A stretch of 7,914 nucleotides of DNA from a virus. Taxonomy: Duplodnaviria; Heunggongvirae; Uroviricota; Caudoviricetes. The stretch lies in the IMG/VR virus record IMGVR_UViG_3300029095_000093; one strand, written 5' to 3'. Both the position numbers and the translations under genes were made by a program. Position 1 is the stretch's first letter. Every line of letters begins with the position of its first letter. Of the stretch, positions 1 through 7,750 are shown in pieces. Below the pieces are notes generated by a model, which was given only the letters and a program-made list of their open reading frames with translations, was not told where the DNA came from and ran no database searches.

Positions 1-125
1 TGCTCATTACAGAAAAAATAACGTTCACCACCGACCTCTGTCAGATCGATTTCCCAGAGCACCACCTGGGCTGACTGAGTGAGGCGTGTCGTCTCATGAT
101 GTGTTTCCTGTGGAATATCCTGCAT
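1..125 (-). CDS. Minor tail protein L (lambda gpL-like), N-terminal 41 codons only; gene runs off the window at position 1
   Basis: Minus-strand ATG at 125-123, preceded by AGGAGG (plus 131-136) that overlaps the stop of the upstream gene. Translation MQDIPQETHHETTRLTQSAQVVLWEIDLTEVGGERYFFCNE matches my memory of the lambda gpL N-terminus (VVLWEIDLTEVGGERYFFCNE). Absent from the supplied ORF track because it is truncated. Confidence 0.8.
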   Translation of the reverse strand, partial: MQDIPQETHHETTRLTQSAQVVLWEIDLTEVGGERYFFCNE

Positions 126-134
126 CAGAGCCTC

Positions 135-464
135 CTATGCCACGACCTGTTCAAAATCTGCCGTTATGGTTACCCACAACGCCCCCACGCTTGCCGACCA
201 TTTACGACAAACCACCCTGATCGGCTTCCAGTCATAAGGTGGCGTCCACTGAAATGCGCGGACGCCACCGTGCCGTTCCAGAAAGGCTTTTAAAGATGGG
301 TGTTCACATTTACGAACACGTATCGTCACGCTGTAAGTCGACAACTGGTTATTCAGTCCCGCCGCACGACGCTGTTCATAACCATCGCCCAGCTTCACTG
401 TCACCACTTTCGGCTCTGATACCACATTCATATCCGGGCGCACTTTCCAGTGAAACGTCTCCAT
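135..464 (-). CDS. Minor tail protein M (lambda gpM-like), 109 aa
   Basis: ATG at 464-462, TAG stop at 137-135. Same length as lambda gpM and the same motif pattern (F-W-K-V-P, FGDGY-QR, TYSVT, FLE-HGG, WTPPY-W, C-KW, FEQVV). SD-like GTGGAG about 10 nt upstream. Immediately followed by the gpL start, as in lambda. Confidence 0.85.
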   Translation of the reverse strand: METFHWKVRPDMNVVSEPKVVTVKLGDGYEQRRAAGLNNQLSTYSVTIRVRKCEHPSLKAFLERHGGVRAFQWTPPYDWKPIRVVCRKWSASVGALWVTITADFEQVVA

Positions 465-2215
465 TACCGATATGCTCCACTTAACCGACCACCATCACGG
501 GCCTGCTGTTGCATAAAGTCCGCTGCCGCTTTTTTCCCAAGGTCATAAACCACCTTCAGGGCAGCAGGACCTATCTGCCCGTTCGTGCCATCGTTATTGA
601 TCTCGATGTTGTACTGCGGGGCAAACATCGCCATACCTGAACCACCAATACCAAGGCCATCACGACGGCAACGACGCCAGAATTTATAGGCATTATCAGT
701 GACCCCGTCTTCACCGCCGGAGTCCACCGCCATTGCCATCAGTCGCATTTGTTGAGAAGGATCGGAGGCCAGCGGCCAGCTTTTATGAAAAACATCCGTC
801 AGCAGGACATCCCAGTCTTCCGGATAACTGGCCGGATCAATTCGCTGGCTCTCCCCGTCGCTGTCACCGCGCAATGACTGCGTGATGTTGTAACGATCAA
901 TAATCCAGCGTTCGCCACGGCTGCCATAGCCCGTTACCTGAACCACAAAACGGCGATGACGTCCCGCCTGCACATCCACTGTCGCCACAAGGAAATTAAC
1001 GCCATCCGGCACACTGCGGGAAGGAACTGGCTCTGCCCGCTGCTCAAGCAGTTCACTTTTTCGTTGCTCCATGCTGGCGCGGGGAAGATAAGGTAATCCC
1101 CAGTCGGTATTGATAACCGTCTTGAGTGTTTCTTCACTTCCGGTTGTCTCGTATTCCTGTTCTGCAGTAAGCAGTTTGTAAACGAGTTGCGAGAGTGTCT
1201 GGTAAGCAGCTGCCGGACCCTCCATCCAGAATGACGCAATACGTGAGCGTCGGGGATCACCATAACGACTGCCATCCGCATTGATGGATTCACCATCCCG
1301 CAGCCAGACCCCACGTCCGTTCAGCTCACGTTTTTGTTCAGGCATAATCCGTCCTGAACAGGAAGGACACTGAATATAAGCCGCCTCACTTGCCAGCACG
1401 GGATCGGCAATATCACGGAAACCAGCAACCACATCGCCGCAGGGCTGAAAATACTCACCACAGTGTGGACAGGGCCAGTACCAGCGACGGCGATCGCCAC
1501 GGTTATAGAGCGACAGTATCCCAGTGGTTGGTGGAGCCTCATGCGGTGAAGTCCGTCGCCATTTCACATCCTTCACATCCCTGCCGGGGGAACTCTCCAC
1601 CAGCGTCATACCACTGGACATAAATGTTGTGGTACGTTTTGAGGCAAGAGAGAAAGCATCCCCCTCGCCATCAATATCTTCCGGAAAACGGTCATAATCC
1701 GTCAGCGCGACGCATTTATAATCTGATGAGGACATGATATTGACTGACGGCCAGCCGATTTTCAGGTAGTTGCCAGCAAGGAATGTTCTGTCATAAACGT
1801 TGTTGTCATTTTTGTTCGGACTCAGGCGACTGACCACTTCCGGGCTGACGCGAAACGTTCTGGCGAGTCGTTTTTTGGAGTGTTCGCGGGCTTTTTCCTC
1901 CGTCATCTGAATGATCAGCATATCCGCAGGGTCGCAAATCACGTTGTAAATCACCCAGCCGTCAATCAGGCCGATAGTCTTGCCGGTTCGTGCCGGGCCA
2001 ACAAATATCACTGCGTCGTATTCACGCGAGGCCAGGCAGTTCATCGGCTCAATAACATACGGTGCCACCAGCGGATCCCACGGGACTGAGTTCCCTGCCC
2101 CCATGGGCACCCGCATATACTGAGCAACGGCATCAGCAACCCGCATTCGTCTCGGTGCGCGAAGGATATAACCTGAATCGGTTCGTGCTGCCTTTGCGGT
2201 TTCCTGATTCAGCAT
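464..2215 (-). CDS. Terminase large subunit (GpA family), 583 aa; the C-terminal ~60 aa may derive from a different gene (see findings)
   Basis: ATG at 2215-2213 overlaps the TAA of the upstream small-subunit gene (TAATG coupling), with AGGAGGAG just upstream. Walker-A-like VFVGPARTGKT and a Cys/His cluster WYWPCPHCGEYF...CPSC resemble the lambda gpA ATPase and zinc motifs. Shorter than lambda gpA (641 aa as I recall); the stop overlaps the gpM start. Confidence 0.8.
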   Translation of the reverse strand: MLNQETAKAARTDSGYILRAPRRMRVADAVAQYMRVPMGAGNSVPWDPLVAPYVIEPMNCLASREYDAVIFVGPARTGKTIGLIDGWVIYNVICDPADMLIIQMTEEKAREHSKKRLARTFRVSPEVVSRLSPNKNDNNVYDRTFLAGNYLKIGWPSVNIMSSSDYKCVALTDYDRFPEDIDGEGDAFSLASKRTTTFMSSGMTLVESSPGRDVKDVKWRRTSPHEAPPTTGILSLYNRGDRRRWYWPCPHCGEYFQPCGDVVAGFRDIADPVLASEAAYIQCPSCSGRIMPEQKRELNGRGVWLRDGESINADGSRYGDPRRSRIASFWMEGPAAAYQTLSQLVYKLLTAEQEYETTGSEETLKTVINTDWGLPYLPRASMEQRKSELLEQRAEPVPSRSVPDGVNFLVATVDVQAGRHRRFVVQVTGYGSRGERWIIDRYNITQSLRGDSDGESQRIDPASYPEDWDVLLTDVFHKSWPLASDPSQQMRLMAMAVDSGGEDGVTDNAYKFWRRCRRDGLGIGGSGMAMFAPQYNIEINNDGTNGQIGPAALKVVYDLGKKAAADFMQQQARDGGRLSGAYR

Positions 2216-2706
2216 TACTCCTCCTGCTGTAATTCCTCCTCATCATCCGCACCTGCTTCGGTCACCCGCAGGGCTATCTGATCGCGCAGATCATCAATAA
2301 TGGACTGAACACGGCTCACAGCGGCAGGCTGCAGGCCGCAGTCACGTTCCAGAATATCCGGTAATGTCTCCAGCACCTGCACGACCGCTTTTGCCCAGAT
2401 GGCAAACTCCCGTCTGACATCACTGGCCGGAATGAGTTGTGCCGTTTCCTGTTCGAACTTAAGACGCTCACGTTCAGACTGATACCAGGCTTTGCGTTCA
2501 TGTGGATCCATTTCGCCCTCAGCAACCGGCGGTGGTAACCCCATAAATTCAGTCAGAATATCGGTCAACCGGTATAGCTTGAGTTTGTCATGTCCACCAG
2601 CGGGACGAATGTTTTTCAGTCTTGCCACGACAGTCTGGCGGTGCAGACCAGATAAAGCCGCCAGTTGATTAATATTCAGCACCAGGTTTTTCAACTCATG
2701 ATCCAT
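2215..2706 (-). CDS. Terminase small subunit (Nu1-like DNA-recognition subunit), 163 aa
   Basis: ATG at 2706-2704 with a strong SD GGAGGA (rc of 2711-2720). N-terminal HTH-like segment LNINQLAALSGLHRQTVVARL and an acidic C-terminus DDEEELQQEE. Position directly upstream of, and translationally coupled to, the large subunit. Resembles the Nu1-homolog proteins of E. coli cryptic prophages, from memory. Confidence 0.8.
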   Translation of the reverse strand: MDHELKNLVLNINQLAALSGLHRQTVVARLKNIRPAGGHDKLKLYRLTDILTEFMGLPPPVAEGEMDPHERKAWYQSERERLKFEQETAQLIPASDVRREFAIWAKAVVQVLETLPDILERDCGLQPAAVSRVQSIIDDLRDQIALRVTEAGADDEEELQQEE

Positions 2707-2760
2707 ATTTCCTCCGGAGAGCTTTAAACATGCATCGTGCGAACAACTTTAAGAAAACGC

Positions 2761-2795
2761 GTTCGATGTCGAACAAAAAACACTCAATTCGACAT
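2761..2795. repeat. Candidate cosB-type terminase-binding repeats: near-palindrome GTTCGAtgTCGAAC plus a further TTCGACAT copy, flanked by A-tracts
   Basis: Seen directly: GTTCGA (2761-2766) / TCGAAC (2769-2774) inverted repeat; ATGTCGAA (2766-2773) and TTCGACAT (2788-2795) are reverse-complementary copies about 15 bp apart. A-tracts (aacaaaaaac, caaaaaacaaa) lie between and beyond. Location between the cosN candidate and the small-terminase start is where lambda has R3/I1/R2/R1. Confidence 0.35.
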
Positions 2796-2880
2796 GCAAA
2801 AAACAAATAACCATTAATAATCAATAAGATGCAAAGATGATGGTGGCCAATAAAAATGCAAAAACTAGCCTTTTTCCGCG

Positions 2881-2892
2881 ACGCTCCCGCCC
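2881..2892 (-). other. Candidate cosN (cohesive-end site)
   Basis: Minus strand reads GGGCGGGAGCGT followed by CGCGG. Lambda's left end, from memory, is GGGCGGCGACCT followed by CGCGG, giving 8 of 12 identities with identical flanks. It lies about 175-185 nt upstream of the small-terminase ATG, close to the lambda cosN-to-Nu1 spacing. Confidence 0.35.
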
Positions 2893-3121
2893 CGTGGCAG
2901 GCCACCCCACCGGGAGGACCCGTCAGCCTGAAAGCCATGACGAACGTCTGATACAGCCCTTGCATAAATGGCATCGGGATAATCCAGAAAGGAATAGCAT
3001 CGACCCACAAGAATCTGTGTGAGTGTCCTGTTTCTTCCACCCCCGCACAGGACTGGTGAGCATGAGGGACAAACCCGCGAATCATTAGCGCGGTAAAAAC
3101 CCGGTGTGCATCGTTTTTGAT

Positions 3122-3186
3122 TATTCCCGCACACTCGCGCAGAAGGAGTTCCCCGTCGGGCTACGGTCATGGTTAATGCGGGAATA
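3122..3186. repeat. 9-bp perfect inverted repeat (TATTCCCGC ... GCGGGAATA) with a 47-nt spacer, inside a block resembling the lambda bor-upstream region
   Basis: Arms at 3122-3130 and 3178-3186, seen directly. The surrounding ~110 nt (AAACCCGGTGTGCATCGTTTTTGATTATTCCCGCACACTC...GTTAATGCGGGAATACA) closely matches what I recall upstream of lambda bor, where the arms read ATTCCCGGA / TCCGGGAAT. The difference is a paired substitution that keeps the stem intact. Confidence 0.5.
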
Positions 3187-3520
3187 CAGCGACGATACAG
3201 CGCATGATGTGTCAGGCTTGAATACCTTTATCCGTTAAAAGGGATATCAGTTAAGTTATCCCGTGTAGGGTATAAGCCATTATCAAAGCCACTCTGTAGG
3301 GAGTGGCTTTCGTAATGGCAATAAAAAAGCCCCGCGAATGCGAGGCTAAATCCAGGTATTTTTAATGACTGGCTCTTATCTCAACGCAGCCCCTTACCGC
3401 GCGCCAGATGCTCAATATCAAGCATCAGCAATGAGATGTTTAACCATGATTCACTCCAGAAGTGAGCACCACCCTGTCTACAGAGCCAGATGTGAAGGAT
3501 GATGAGTAAAATTATCGCTA

Positions 3521-4892: not shown

Positions 4893-5108
4893 TTACTCTC
4901 CCCGTGCAGCCTTACGCTTGTCTTCTTTAATCTTGAAATAAAGGTTTGTCAGATACGTCAGCAAGCCAAATACCAGACTACCCAGCACACCTATTGCCGC
5001 CCACTGTGAGGGCGTGACTTTATCGAGCAACTGTAAAAACCAGTACCCGGCACTACCTGCTGAGGTGCCATAGGCGACACCCGTTGTTAACTTATCCATG
5101 GATTTCAT
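4893..5108 (-). CDS. Class II holin, phage 21 S-like pinholin, 71 aa with dual-start motif (Met1/Met4)
   Basis: The track ORF starts upstream at 5171, but ATG at 5108-5106 has an SD (GAGGTGGGG) and gives [71 protein letters not shown], near-identical in pattern to S21 as I recall it. Two TMDs and a charged C-terminus; MKSM is the holin/antiholin dual start. Confidence 0.85.
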
Positions 5109-5141: not shown

Positions 5142-5169
5142 GGAAATAAAAAGGCCACCTGACGTGGCC
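5142..5169 (-). terminator. Rho-independent terminator just downstream of the methyltransferase gene (minus strand)
   Basis: Stem GGCCAC (5153-5158) / GTGGCC (5164-5169) with a 5-nt loop. On the minus strand the hairpin is followed by TTTTTATTTCC (rc of 5142-5152). Begins 7 nt after the methyltransferase stop and about 35 nt before the holin start. Confidence 0.6.
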
Positions 5170-5175
5170 ACCAGA

Positions 5176-6228
5176 TTATTTCCCCACCAGCTCGTTTATC
5201 TCTTTCACTGTCTGGTTAAACCGCTCTGACTCAAGCTCAACACCTAAGGCCCGACGCCCCAGCGCCATTGCTGCTTTTATTGTGGAACCGGATCCCATAA
5301 AAAAATCAGCAACCAGATCACCTGGTCGACTACTGGCATTGATTATTTGCCTGAGCATATCCGCCGGTTTCTCACACGGATGTTTCCCCGGGTAGAACTG
5401 AACGGGTTTATGCATCCAGACATCGGTATAAGGCACGGAGACTGATACGGAGAAATAGCGCCGGAGAGATTTAAACTCATCCAGCAATTCAGAATATTTG
5501 CGATTCAGTGAATCATAAGATGCCACCAGCTGGTGGTGTGGTTGTTCCAGTTGTTGTTCCTGAAACTTCTCTGCCGCTATACGGGAAAACAGTGCCTGTA
5601 ACTTCCGATAGTCAGCCTCATTCGGCAACTGCCACTGACTGGCACCAAACCAGTGGGAAACCATATTTTTCTTACCTGTGGCTTCGGCAATTTGTTTTGC
5701 CGTTATACCCAGTTCGGCACGAGCATCCCTGAAATACGATATCAGCGGTGCCATTATGTGCTGTTTGAGTTCCCTTTCTTTTGCCGCATAGCCGTCACTT
5801 TTGCCGCGATATGGCCCCTGGTAATGTTCAGCAAACAGAACGCGCTCTGTGGCAGGAAAATATGCACGCAGACTTTCTTTATTACACCCATTCCAACGTC
5901 CGGACGGCTTCGCCCAGATGATATGGTTAAGCACGTTGAAACGTTCACGCATCATGATCTCAATATCAGATGCCAGGCGATGCCCACAGAACAGGTAAAG
6001 GCTTCCGGCAGGTTTTAACACCCGCCAGAACTGGGTCAGACAGTGGTCCAGCCACTTAAGGTAATCTTCGTCCCCTTTCCACTGATTGTCCCAGCCGTTG
6101 GGTTTCACCTTGAAGTACGGCGGATCGGTAACAATCAGGTCAATGGAATCATCAGGCAGGGACTGAATAAAATGCAGGCAATCAGCGTTGATTAAATCAA
6201 CACTGTTTATTTTTACAGTATTTTTCAT
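5176..6228 (-). CDS. Orphan DNA methyltransferase, beta-class, probably N6-adenine, 350 aa
   Basis: ATG at 6228-6226, TAA at 5178-5176. Motif [12 protein letters not shown] near the N-terminus and motif [10 protein letters not shown] near the C-terminus (IV before I indicates beta class); DPPY rather than SPPY favours N6-adenine. HPCEKP motif as in YhdJ-type enzymes. A ~120 aa insert between the catalytic motifs contains an HTH-like stretch ([20 protein letters not shown]). No restriction endonuclease gene in the window. Confidence 0.85.
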
Positions 6229-6378
6229 GGATCAGTAAGCGTAACTCTGGTAGGCTCACTCTGCTTTTGCGCTAAAGCAGTGGGCCGTGGTTCGCTTGTG
6301 ACCAGTAAGCATGAGCGAATGGCTGGCAGGTGCTACCAACACCCACCAGCCGCCCATTTTCACAGCAGGAAACCGCCA

Positions 6379-6582
6379 TTACTGGCAGCGTCTGAATTTA
6401 TTCCCGTACCCGCCGTTATCCTTCGCCAGACCCGCCAGAACTAACTGAGTCAGTATTAACTGGCACCGGGCTTCGCTTACTCCGGTAGTTCTCGTCATCA
6501 TGCGTGGCGTTACCCACTTGTCAGCAGGTAAGAAATGAAGGACTGCGGCGGCGGTTTCTGTCATATCTTGCTGTTTTAGCAT
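6379..6582 (-). CDS. Small hypothetical protein, possible winged-helix DNA-binding regulator (~67 aa from the second ATG; track start at 6606 gives 75 aa)
   Basis: The first ATG (6606) has no SD; the ATG at 6582-6580 has AGAAGGGA 8-15 nt upstream. Sequence ...AAAVLHFLPADKWVTPRMMTRTTGVSEARCQLILTQLVLAGLAKDNGG has the spacing of a small wHTH (FaeA/PapI-like or MarR-like helix-turn-helix-wing). This is only a pattern-level resemblance. Confidence 0.45.
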   Translation of the reverse strand: MLKQQDMTETAAAVLHFLPADKWVTPRMMTRTTGVSEARCQLILTQLVLAGLAKDNGGYGNKFRRCQ

Positions 6583-6704
6583 GTCTTTTTCCCTTCTGGT
6601 TAACATGACATACCAATAACTCTTGTCTAAAAAGCCAGCAAGATAAAAAGTCAGTATTCACGACCACCAGCGTGTTTACTGTACTGCACCAAGTTTACAG
6701 GTAC

Positions 6705-6730
6705 AAAAAAAACCGCTCAGCGGCGGGTTT
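6705..6730 (-). terminator. Weak terminator-like element: short GC stem followed by a U8 tract on the minus strand
   Basis: Plus strand AAAAAAAACCGCTCAGCGGCGGGTTT. On the minus strand this is a CCGC/GCGG 4-bp stem with a 3-nt loop followed by eight T. The stem is short, so it is marginal. Sits in the divergent intergenic region between the small ORF and the lipoprotein gene. Confidence 0.3.
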
Positions 6731-6853
6731 AAGTTGTGTGGCGAAGTAACCACTCTTAACAGCATATTTGATTTTTTACGATTGTAAACGGTTGATTATT
6801 CATCTCCAATAAAAATAATTGTGTGGGTATACCCTTAGCAATGGATAAGAAAC

Positions 6854-7300
6854 ATGAATAAAATGACTGTACTATTACTTAGCGCAACTATCATTTCAGG
6901 TTGTACTTCTTCCGTACCATTGATAAAGAAAACTCAATCAGGAAAACCTGAGGGGGTTTATCAAAATACGACAAAAGATAAAGTCAAAGATGCCCTTGTG
7001 AATTACTGCAATAGTAGAGGGTTGATAATTTACAACGCGGATAACAGCAGTGTTATATGTGGTAAAGAACTGGAAGGCGGCTCTGCTGTTTTTGGACAAA
7101 TGTTAATCGGAAATGCCTATTCAACAACCCCGGTATCAAAAGTCAGATTTACTATCGCTCAAGTTAATAACGATACAAAAGTGTGGGCCGATATGTGGAT
7201 GGAAACTCAAATGGCAATGGGACAAGTACAACAAATGGCTATAACAGACAACGCAAGCAAAAACACTATCCAACAACGTCTTGATGAATTAAAACCTTAA
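6854..7300 (+). CDS. Predicted lipoprotein of unknown function, 148 aa, AT-rich moron on the strand opposite to all other phage genes
   Basis: ATG at 6854, TAA at 7298-7300. Signal peptide MNKMTVLLLSATIISGC with lipobox ISGC; Thr at +2 suggests outer-membrane sorting. Composition is visibly AT-rich compared with flanking genes (about 35-40% GC by eye, not computed). Weak SD. I do not recognise the mature sequence. Confidence 0.7.
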   Translation: MNKMTVLLLSATIISGCTSSVPLIKKTQSGKPEGVYQNTTKDKVKDALVNYCNSRGLIIYNADNSSVICGKELEGGSAVFGQMLIGNAYSTTPVSKVRFTIAQVNNDTKVWADMWMETQMAMGQVQQMAITDNASKNTIQQRLDELKP

Positions 7301-7342
7301 GTAAACTAATTAAATAAAATGGGGAGAATAAATCGACTCCCC
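7301..7342 (-). terminator. Intrinsic terminator between the convergent Q and lipoprotein genes (stronger for the minus-strand Q transcript)
   Basis: Stem GGGGAG (7321-7326) / CTCCCC (7337-7342) with a 10-nt loop. On the minus strand it is followed by ATTTTATTTAATT; on the plus strand by ACACATTAAA, which is not U-rich. Lies 43 nt after the Q stop and 21 nt after the lipoprotein stop. Confidence 0.55.
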
Positions 7343-7384: not shown

Positions 7385-7750
7385 CTAACGATCCATCTCT
7401 AGCTCAATTTCTAACATCATTAACATGCCATCAACTACACCTTCAGCCTTTTGCAATAAACGCCCAACCCAGCAATCAGAACGCCCATGTTTACGGGCAA
7501 GCGCCATAAACGTCATACCACCTACATAATAATCCACTAATAAATCGTGCAAATCGCTGTTGTTCTTTTTCAGGCGAGCCATGCACCCACAAATGATCAT
7601 CGCGTCATCGTCACAACATTGCGGGCGGGATTTTACTTTTGAAGGGATTAGTCCTTTAAATCCTGCAGCAATAGACGACCAGGTGACATCCTCGTGATTA
7701 TTTGCCACCCATGCCCCCCAACGTTCAAGAACCATTTGAATATCACGCAT
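7385..7750 (-). CDS. Late-gene antitermination protein Q (small phage 82/21-type Q, DLP12 QuuD-like), ~121 aa
   Basis: The track ORF begins at TTG 7765; the first ATG is at 7750-7748, giving [64 protein letters not shown]..., which matches my memory of the DLP12 Q protein. Cys cluster CCDDD...CGC is consistent with a zinc-binding Q. TAG stop at 7387-7385. Confidence 0.8.

Follow-up and report, generated by a model that had tools for sequence, protein, structure and literature searches.

An M.EcoGII-family adenine methyltransferase gene behind a conserved structured leader in the late region of a lambdoid Escherichia coli prophage

We analyzed a stretch of 7,914 nucleotides (nt) of tailed-phage DNA (Caudoviricetes; IMG/VR virus record IMGVR_UViG_3300029095_000093; hereafter, the window), whose genes are those of the late region of a lambdoid Escherichia coli prophage, all the informative ones lying on the minus strand. 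Among them is an intact open reading frame (ORF) at 5176..6228 (minus strand), which encodes a beta-class N6-adenine methyltransferase of the M.EcoGII family with 350 amino acids (aa). We consider, with a probability of about 80%, that this gene is an early cistron of the late operon and that its product would methylate adenine in any context, would be made after induction, and would protect the DNA of the progeny. Between the methylase gene and a small gene for a winged-helix protein, we found a conserved structured leader RNA that is apparently undescribed.

Family and recognition domain of the methylase

The methylase matched the Pfam profile N6_N4_Mtase (PF01555; E=3e-42), its residues 29-341 covering positions 1-220 of the 221 in the profile, and PHROG family 67, DNA methyltransferase (E=4.5e-102). 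The DPPY sequence of motif IV (D35-P36-P37-Y38, residues 35-38, nt 6115-6126) is N-terminal, and the FMGSG sequence of motif I (F310-x-G312-x-G314, residues 310-314, nt 5287-5301) is C-terminal and extends to FMGSGS, that is FxGxGS, at residues 310-315 (nt 5284-5301). A preliminary description of the window, made from its letters alone, had read this order as that of a beta-class enzyme, and the positions of the two motifs together with the PF01555 match bear it out. Both DPPY and FxGxG were invariant among the relatives aligned, down to 49% identity, so that the check for substitutions in the catalytic motifs proposed in that description turned up none. The enzyme had also been called an orphan, and indeed neither the window nor an intact relative, over 19.6 kb, was found to contain an endonuclease; in a PADLOC search, the methylase was the sole match and no restriction gene was detected.

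The characterized enzymes M.EcoGII and M.EcoGI are encoded by prophages of E. coli O104:H4 C227-11 (PMC5778455), and the window methylase resembles them in being a prophage-borne beta-class enzyme of 349-350 aa with the same recognition domain and linker. It aligned with M.EcoGII at 80% identity over the full length without large gaps, through the core, the recognition domain, and the charged linker, and its identities to the reconstructed ancestors Anc291 and Anc289 were 89% and 86%, respectively, while those of its close relatives to SUPREM/Anc284 were 72-76%. The M.EcoGII and ancestor sequences were read from an optical character recognition copy of the SUPREM supplement, which contains slips such as NHHIW and GRRRAIG, and these identities are good to about 1%. 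The window protein differs from M.EcoGII at 20% of its residues and falls in another sub-branch, nearer Anc291. In the conserved dimer-interface segments of the family (residues 97-110 and 116-140; PMC11551740), only two differences from M.EcoGII were found, N98S and V129I, both of them conservative. A 93% identical relative of M.EcoGII occurs in phage Stx2a_WGPS2, within the same module of small ORF, leader, and methylase. The window methylase was 99.7% identical to that of the sequenced phage cdtI, 82% to the phiP27 protein, and 64% to a Morganella-phage protein.

M.EcoGII methylates adenine in any context in double-stranded DNA, single-stranded DNA (ssDNA), hybrids, and RNA (PMC5778455). 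Each of the six ancestors reconstructed on the way to the last common ancestor with M.PflMI was active in methylating both DNA and RNA, and nanopore RNA sequencing of M.EcoGII, Anc291, and SUPREM revealed no sequence motif, Anc291 and SUPREM being non-site-specific (PMC11551740). The same family includes two further non-specific enzymes, PhiOS31_p25 of Serratia phage OS31 and ARM81ld_p56 of an Aeromonas plasmid-prophage; both stem from other hosts and are less closely related, with 58-67% identity among themselves. The OS31 enzyme, 58% identical to ARM81ld_p56, proved to have relaxed specificity when assayed by restriction protection, and its named homologues include the phiP27 (67% identical) and Morganella-phage (66%) proteins (PMC7556043). 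By homology to these enzymes, we infer that the window methylase would modify adenine in essentially any sequence context. The assignment of a family and a likely target, which the preliminary description had suggested, therefore succeeded for the family (M.EcoGII, 80% identity) but not for a defined target; because the M.EcoGII family is sequence-non-specific, naming a target is the wrong question. Judged by its sequence, the methylase is an ordinary and very common prophage allele of a characterized family, not a new kind of enzyme.

NCBI names the homologues "site-specific DNA-methyltransferase", and the window protein gave sub-threshold NCBIfam matches to the YhdJ-type model PRK11524 (109 bits against a cut-off of 292) and to CcrM models. 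These assignments, together with the fact that helix-turn-helix (HTH) domains commonly read sequence, would fit a Dam- or CcrM-like orphan methyltransferase that sets a defined epigenetic mark, its HTH reading one site. We nevertheless regard such an enzyme as very unlikely, because the NCBIfam scores lie far below the cut-offs and cover the catalytic halves only, and the identity of 80-89% to experimentally non-specific enzymes runs through the recognition domain and the charged linker. In addition, the OS31 enzyme, which is 66-67% identical to homologues of the window protein though not compared with the window protein itself, is also non-specific, and M.PflMI, the closest relative with site specificity, shares only 27% identity with M.EcoGII and has no charged linker (PMC11551740).

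The preliminary description had further noted an insert of about 120 aa with an HTH-like segment between the catalytic motifs. Relative to the PF01555 profile, about 90 additional central residues separate the motif blocks, and the target-recognition domain and linker correspond to approximately nt 5455-5793. In the M.EcoGII family, the published target-recognition domain is a four-helix bundle including an HTH (residues 160-237), to which a charged linker is added (PMC11551740). The AlphaFold2 model of the window methylase has helices at residues 146-173, 177-184, 189-193, 204-223, and 238-258, which occupy positions matching this bundle, with a predicted local distance difference test score (pLDDT) of 69-88 in ten-residue blocks across 151-250, and residues 140-262 aligned with M.EcoGII free of gaps. 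The HTH segment is thus upheld, whereas the insertion is not, since every member of the family carries the recognition domain and linker. On this alignment and the predicted model, the central helical segment is the non-specific nucleic-acid-binding domain of the enzyme and not a regulatory add-on.

Late-operon setting and proposed role

Upstream of the methylase, the minus strand carries a gene for a Q-family late antiterminator (7385..7750, longest ORF to 7765; PF06530 Phage_antitermQ, E=2e-51), which RefSeq labels antiterminator Q family protein in a 99.9%-identical locus (L001). A consensus scan and homology placed a pR'-like late promoter (TTTACA-16-TATGCT) at 6761..6788 (minus strand). 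The annotated -35/-10 signals of N15 aligned with this site, as did the corresponding regions of PY54, SfV, and phiP27; the TAAGAG that follows the promoter is a candidate -10-like pause element. At 6702..6727 (minus strand), a terminator-like match, CCGCCGCUGAGCGG then U8, forms a tR'-like intrinsic terminator homologous to the terminators that the records of SfV and N15 place right behind the late promoter. This layout of Q, a late promoter, and tR' matches the established lambdoid pR'-tR' arrangement of late control. Between the methylase stop codon and the holin start, there is a terminator-like hairpin (GGCCAC-GUCAG-GUGGCC then UUUUUAUUU; 5143..5169, minus strand) of 6 bp with -12.2 kcal/mol and z = -2.5; at the same position, the SfV record has a terminator and the N15 record a stem-loop. 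The hairpin had been described as the methylase's own terminator; its presence is confirmed, but it would not delimit an independent unit, as it lies inside the Q-antiterminated operon.

The order Q, promoter/terminator, small ORF, about 150 nt, methylase, terminator, and then lysis genes or tRNAs plus stx2 was found in nine phages with different Q types. With the leader before the methylase and the small ORF as an optional member, it recurs in SfV, phiP27, Stx2a, Stx2c, Morganella, Providencia, and Citrobacter phages, and in N15 and PY54 too. The relatives of the methylase gene in N15, PY54, a Vibrio phage, and the P2-like phiO18P adjoin the lysis cassette, and that of OS31 stands directly before it, as in the window. 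Because the gene is sited in the late operon under Q antitermination, the methylase is probably a late, Q-dependent cistron that is silent in the lysogen. This agrees with the reported behavior of M.EcoGII, which is prophage-borne, silent in normal growth and in the lysogen, and deleterious under constitutive expression (PMC5778455).

We propose the following mechanism. In the lysogen, transcription from the pR'-like promoter (6761-6788) would halt at tR' (6702-6727), leaving the methylase silent. Upon induction, Q (7385-7750) would turn RNA polymerase terminator-resistant, and the polymerase would then copy the winged-helix gene, the 145-nt leader, and the methylase gene, and read through the 5143-5169 hairpin into the genes for holin, lysozyme, and spanin and, in relatives that are intact, into the packaging genes as well. 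The enzyme would hypermethylate the replicating phage DNA ahead of packaging, and the progeny genomes would resist, in new hosts, many restriction systems that are blocked by adenine methylation. Because constitutive expression of a non-specific methylase is harmful, a second control layer is expected, and translation of the methylase may be gated by the folded leader at its ATG. The preliminary description had offered protection against restriction or an epigenetic mark as the role of the enzyme; protection is the most likely role, and we infer an anti-restriction function for the window methylase, whereas homology to non-specific enzymes speaks against a defined mark.

A harmful, broad, and late DNA modification enzyme has a counterpart in the com-mom operon of phage Mu and in Hia5, Hin1523, and Nma1821, non-specific adenine methylases in the mom position of Mu-like prophages (PMC3299994). 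In Mu com-mom and with Hia5/Hin1523, a small regulatory gene and a translation-controlling mRNA structure precede the enzyme, which sets a precedent for the leader. The window differs from Mu in that its small protein is a winged helix rather than a zinc finger and in that its operon is of the lambdoid Q-dependent kind rather than a mom operon.

Alternatively, the methylase might act mainly on the DNA or RNA of the host, contributing to takeover or toxicity late in infection. M.EcoGII acts on RNA, ssDNA, and DNA:RNA hybrids and harms the cells that express it (PMC5778455), and the gene stands beside the lysis cassette in unrelated phage types, including the P2-like phiO18P. However, the RNA activity of M.EcoGII is approximately 100-fold below its DNA activity (11.12 vs 0.12, Table S3, SUPREM supplement), and the window methylase has Q179, as M.EcoGII does, and not the E179 that is tied to higher RNA activity. 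Late expression before packaging also fits self-protection, as for Mu Mom and Hia5/Hin1523 (PMC3299994), and a main action on host targets is distinctly unlikely.

The small winged-helix gene and the leader RNA

The first ORF after tR' (6379..6582, minus strand; alternative starts 6606 and 6564) encodes a protein of 67 aa belonging to PHROG family 331 (E=3e-26). Its conserved start is the ATG at 6582, from which the protein begins MLKQQDMT and which is preceded by AAGGGA, while RefSeq places the start at 6564. The codon-position entropy (0.94/0.70/1.43 over 55 distinct DNA sequences) is a coding pattern, and the protein length is kept over a range of 47-100% aa identity. AlphaFold2 predicted a canonical winged helix, H1-H2-H3-beta-hairpin (pLDDT 86.7; predicted template modelling score 0.75). 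The best Foldseek matches of this model were the winged helices of Zalpha, TrmBL2, and IclR (TM scores 0.63-0.83; best E 2.2e-3), none of them at E<=0.001. Pfam gave no family at E<=0.01, and at a relaxed cut-off it gave weak matches to the winged-helix-type families MarR_2 (E=0.045) and TrmB (0.12) and to DnaD_N (0.12) but no HTH_3 match; NCBI names some of the homologues TrmB-family regulators. The predicted recognition helix RCQLILTQL is invariant among the small proteins. The ORF occurs in two main variants that differ in helices 1-2, the N-terminus and the third helix being invariant in both. The small wHTH-like ORF noted earlier upstream on the same strand is thus a real gene for a winged helix, 150 nt away, though it starts at 6582 and not at 6606.

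When the 900 nt preceding each methylase gene were searched with a profile, the small gene turned up in 53 of the 78 enterobacterial genome loci, with a fixed spacing of about 150 nt, in 24 of the 73 loci retrieved with the N15 protein, and in none of the 77 retrieved with the Vibrio protein. Conversely, it follows Q without any methylase in phage PhiR5_1 (L010), and N15, PY54, and 77/77 Vibrio-type loci have the methylase but lack the small gene. The module is also mosaic (L002, L009): in SfV, the methylase is 98% and the small ORF 51% identical to those of the window, whereas the corresponding values in an Stx2c phage are 85% and 98.5%. These diverging identities indicate that the two genes recombine independently. 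The winged-helix gene is therefore a frequent but facultative and dispensable neighbor of the methylase, and its product may be an accessory factor, not an obligatory one, with a possible part in control of the methylase.

The stretch of 150 nt that separates the small ORF from the methylase ATG was more conserved than either flanking gene, and the 5' part of this intergenic element was invariant. Within it lies a structured RNA of 145 nt (6226..6370, minus strand) that ends at the methylase ATG, as shown by conservation, covariation, and a covariance model, R1. The helices, all on the minus strand, were proposed on a MAFFT alignment of 65 distinct leaders that was not fitted to a model. P1 (UGGGC/GCCCA; 6352-6356 with 6281-6285) closes a three-way junction, P2 is a 12-bp hairpin (6321-6351), P3 is a further hairpin (6291-6319), and P4 is the downstream hairpin (6263-6278). 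The conserved GGUCA in the loop of P3 (6299-6303) could further form a pseudoknot with UGAUC immediately before the ATG (6230-6234), and the equivalent in the Vibrio phage pairs GUCAUA with UAUGAC, the start codon included. P1 is compatible with P3 and shows a few compensatory changes.

In the MAFFT alignment, 92.7% of the helix cells were paired, against 31-45% with slid partners, and 14 pairs were changed on both sides, against 6.1+/-1.5 in shuffled alignments, the observed value being reached in 0/500 shuffles. A second set comprised 89 distinct diverse matches, whose alignment was fitted to the model and is so biased towards the proposed structure; here 26 of the 28 pairs were changed on both sides (shuffles, 17.8+/-1.5), as were 415 cells (shuffles, 127+/-11), and the covariation score was 0.42 (shuffles, 0.14; slid partners, <=0.085). 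We searched R1, which had been built from the MAFFT alignment, against the window and about 250 loci, about 1.2 Mb of distinct sequence on both strands, at E<=1 for the phage-record and genome loci and E<=0.01 for the viral loci. Each positive locus gave one significant match, always on the methylase-sense strand and adjoining the methylase, and several of the families matched were absent from the training set. Nearly all full-length matches ended no more than about 50 nt from the methylase ATG, or else at a zinc-ribbon ORF, and at the thresholds used there was a single other match, a marginal one (E=0.076). A scan of viral contigs yielded almost only near-identical loci, and the diversity came from the Vibrio-phage and N15 protein queries.

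In N15 and PY54, the leader has different helix sequences and comes directly after the late terminator with no small ORF between, and in the Vibrio phage it is followed by a zinc-ribbon ORF and then the methylase. This ORF (38 aa, CxxC...CxxC) fills the gap between leader and methylase in the Vibrio-phage locus (L013, 2362-2478) and in 18 IMG/VR loci (e.g. L175, 1356-1478). It recalls Mu Com in size and position, although its match to Zn_ribbon_Com reached only E=0.28; for the small protein of the window, the Com analogy is ruled out by the winged-helix fold and the presence of two cysteines only. In Photorhabdus and Xenorhabdus loci (L067-L094), the small gene is kept and a shortened leader, undetected by R1, lies about 85-100 nt upstream of the methylase; it keeps the AAUGG..GGCUGGUGG hairpin and has lost the GCCCA/P4 part. 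A GATC (Dam site) at 6230-6233, 3 nt 5' of the methylase ATG (alignment A3, columns 152-155), overlaps the pseudoknot partner UGAUC; it is kept in nearly all enterobacterial leaders and absent in N15 and PY54.

The G-U pairs seen at many positions, on the sense strand only, speak for an RNA and not a DNA element, and the compensatory changes together with its presence where the small gene is absent point to an RNA that works without the winged-helix protein. These findings bear on the suggestion, made in the preliminary description, that the small protein and the methylase form a controller-type pair or a methylation-sensitive switch, which would operate through binding to the intergenic DNA. 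The two genes are adjacent and co-oriented at about 150 nt in the 53/78 enterobacterial loci, the winged helix is a nucleic-acid-binding fold, and both its predicted recognition helix and the 5' part of the intergenic element are invariant. The arrangement also recalls the C proteins of type II restriction-modification systems, in which a small protein with a DNA-binding fold is encoded upstream of, and co-oriented with, the methyltransferase. Here, however, a restriction gene is missing, the protein has a winged-helix fold and is not of the Xre/HTH_3 type, the pairing is facultative, each gene occurs alone and recombines independently, and the intergenic element keeps its pairing through compensatory changes, with sense-strand G-U pairs, even without the small gene. 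The pairing thus found no support, and we consider a controller or switch unlikely.

No Rfam family matched the window between 4800 and 7914 at E<=1, none matched over the leader in the N15, PY54, Vibrio, Morganella, and L222 loci, and the literature that could be searched yielded no account of the element. The leader is a conserved structured RNA and apparently an undescribed one. A leader peptide starting at the invariant AUGGGC was rejected as not coding, because across 90 sequences in-frame stops came after 3-42 codons or were absent. No Shine-Dalgarno sequence precedes the methylase ATG, and the invariant 5' AUGGGCG has alternative partners in CGCUCAU (which competes with P3), GCCCA, GCCUA, and CCAUG at the start codon. 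Alternative folds that reach the start codon suggest a translational gate, and the leader would accordingly control translation of the methylase. It is possible, and we put it forward only tentatively, that the leader represents a new class of cis-regulatory RNA, consisting of a three-way junction, a hairpin, and a possible pseudoknot, that holds a toxic methylase untranslated until a late-lytic signal. If it is such a gate, the signal could be S-adenosylmethionine or S-adenosylhomocysteine, the winged-helix protein (in Vibrio, the zinc-ribbon protein), or methylation of the leader by the enzyme itself.

The locus IsrK-orf45-anrP of Gifsy-1 (PMC4825925) offers a related layout, with Q, a late promoter, a short terminated RNA, a small ORF, and a translationally silent downstream gene carried by the read-through transcript, but its cargo is an anti-repressor instead of a methylase, and the window had no Rfam isrK match. 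Weak sub-threshold Rfam matches were seen elsewhere, to isrK on the PY54 promoter-terminator (L012, 2287-2362; 21.7 bits, E=0.88) and to isrJ upstream of the Vibrio leader (L013, 2093-2160; E=0.12), both families stemming from the Gifsy-1 antQ-isrK-orf45-anrP-isrJ late-leader locus (PMC4825925). Lying outside the leader, these matches may reflect chance or a distant similarity of promoter-terminator regions. An IsrK-like pairing of the short pR'-tR' RNA with the ribosome-binding region of the small ORF was discarded, as UGGUUA/UAACCA occurs in the window but not in SfV, and, by eye alone, we saw no stretch of the downstream leader with conserved complementarity to the short RNA.

Prophage context and significance

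The prophage in the window is defective, with about 10 kb of head and tail genes deleted at a junction at approximately 640-660. Window 1-650 corresponds to the C-terminus of the tape-measure protein and the minor tail genes M and L, and window 649-3290 to the terminase; in the intact relative SCU-484, these segments are about 10.3 kb apart. The deletion joins both segments, making the large terminase ORF a fusion with the tape-measure tail, and window 1-1100, which spans the junction, is covered to 80% or more in only two genomes. With these losses, the methylase gene could be taken for a decaying remnant without function in this strain. We give this explanation hardly any credence, since the ORF is full-length with intact motifs and 99.7% identical to the cdtI methylase, and the region is 99.8-99.9% identical to that of the best-matching complete E. 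coli chromosomes, with 645 records at >=99%. The segment 5100-6700, to which these identities refer, is present in 1473 of the 5426 complete E. coli genomes, and the methylase module was found in 95 phage records.

Several points nonetheless weigh against the role that we favor, namely a late methylase of any-context specificity that protects progeny DNA. This copy of the prophage is unable to make progeny alone, and its methylase gene may therefore never serve a productive infection. The 20% divergence from M.EcoGII could in principle alter the specificity, and the AlphaFold2 model of the methylase is of moderate confidence, with an overall pLDDT of 67 and values below 50 at residues 99-146 and 256-286. 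The promoter, pause site, and terminators are putative, being consensus matches with homology to annotated features. About 600 nt with an oppositely oriented gene separate Q from the proposed promoter, and a terminator-like hairpin follows Q at 7315-7342; the true late promoter could therefore lie elsewhere. As for the gate, a single fold for the 5' AUGGGCG had to be set aside, as several mutually exclusive pairings are possible, and the putative translational role of the leader rests on its position and the missing Shine-Dalgarno sequence.

Downstream of the methylase, the lysis cassette begins with an S21-type holin gene, essD (4893..5108, minus strand; PF04971, E=4e-35), which RefSeq annotates at the matching coordinates; after it come, on the minus strand, a DUF1327 gene, the genes for lysozyme and the Rz spanin, and those for the small and large terminase subunits, an order borne out by the annotated context of strain SCU-484. 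The oppositely oriented gene between Q and the late promoter (6854..7300, plus strand) is a moron encoding a lipoprotein-like product of 148 aa with a signal peptide and a lipobox-like LSATIISGC, identified as an ORF and as a member of PHROG 3152 (unknown function; E=1e-104); its GC content is 0.37-0.39 against about 0.50 in the flanks. In Stx2a_WGPS2, the same slot holds two unrelated, reverse-oriented genes. The early (nin-like) region of the intact relative L001 carries, at 14204-14857, a second and unrelated "phage N-6-adenine-methyltransferase", and such phages therefore encode two adenine methylases. The window also contains eight Chi octamers (GCTGGTGG), against 0.28 expected by chance, seven on the minus strand (1597, 2065, 2594, 5184, 5523, 6343, and 6664) and one on the plus strand (5529). 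The seven are co-oriented with late transcription, which we read as the orientation recognized by RecBCD arriving from the lysis-gene side of the presumed cos region; the Chi at 6343-6350 is contained in P2 of the leader, as the invariant 5' arm of that hairpin.

The methylase itself adds little, being one more allele of a characterized family that is already sold as a reagent. Enzymes of the M.EcoGII type, toxic and widespread, have found wide use in the footprinting of chromatin and RNA; roughly one in four complete E. coli genomes encodes such an enzyme, and in several Shiga-toxin phages the gene lies directly upstream of stx2. In our judgment, the leader RNA, and possibly the winged-helix protein too, are the parts that merit follow-up. 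A leader at the start codon and a recurrent small nucleic-acid-binding protein provide a concrete and testable handle on how the methylase is controlled. Should the leader turn out to sense a ligand or a protein, it would constitute a new regulatory RNA of phages and a possible tool for the tightly gated expression of toxic genes.

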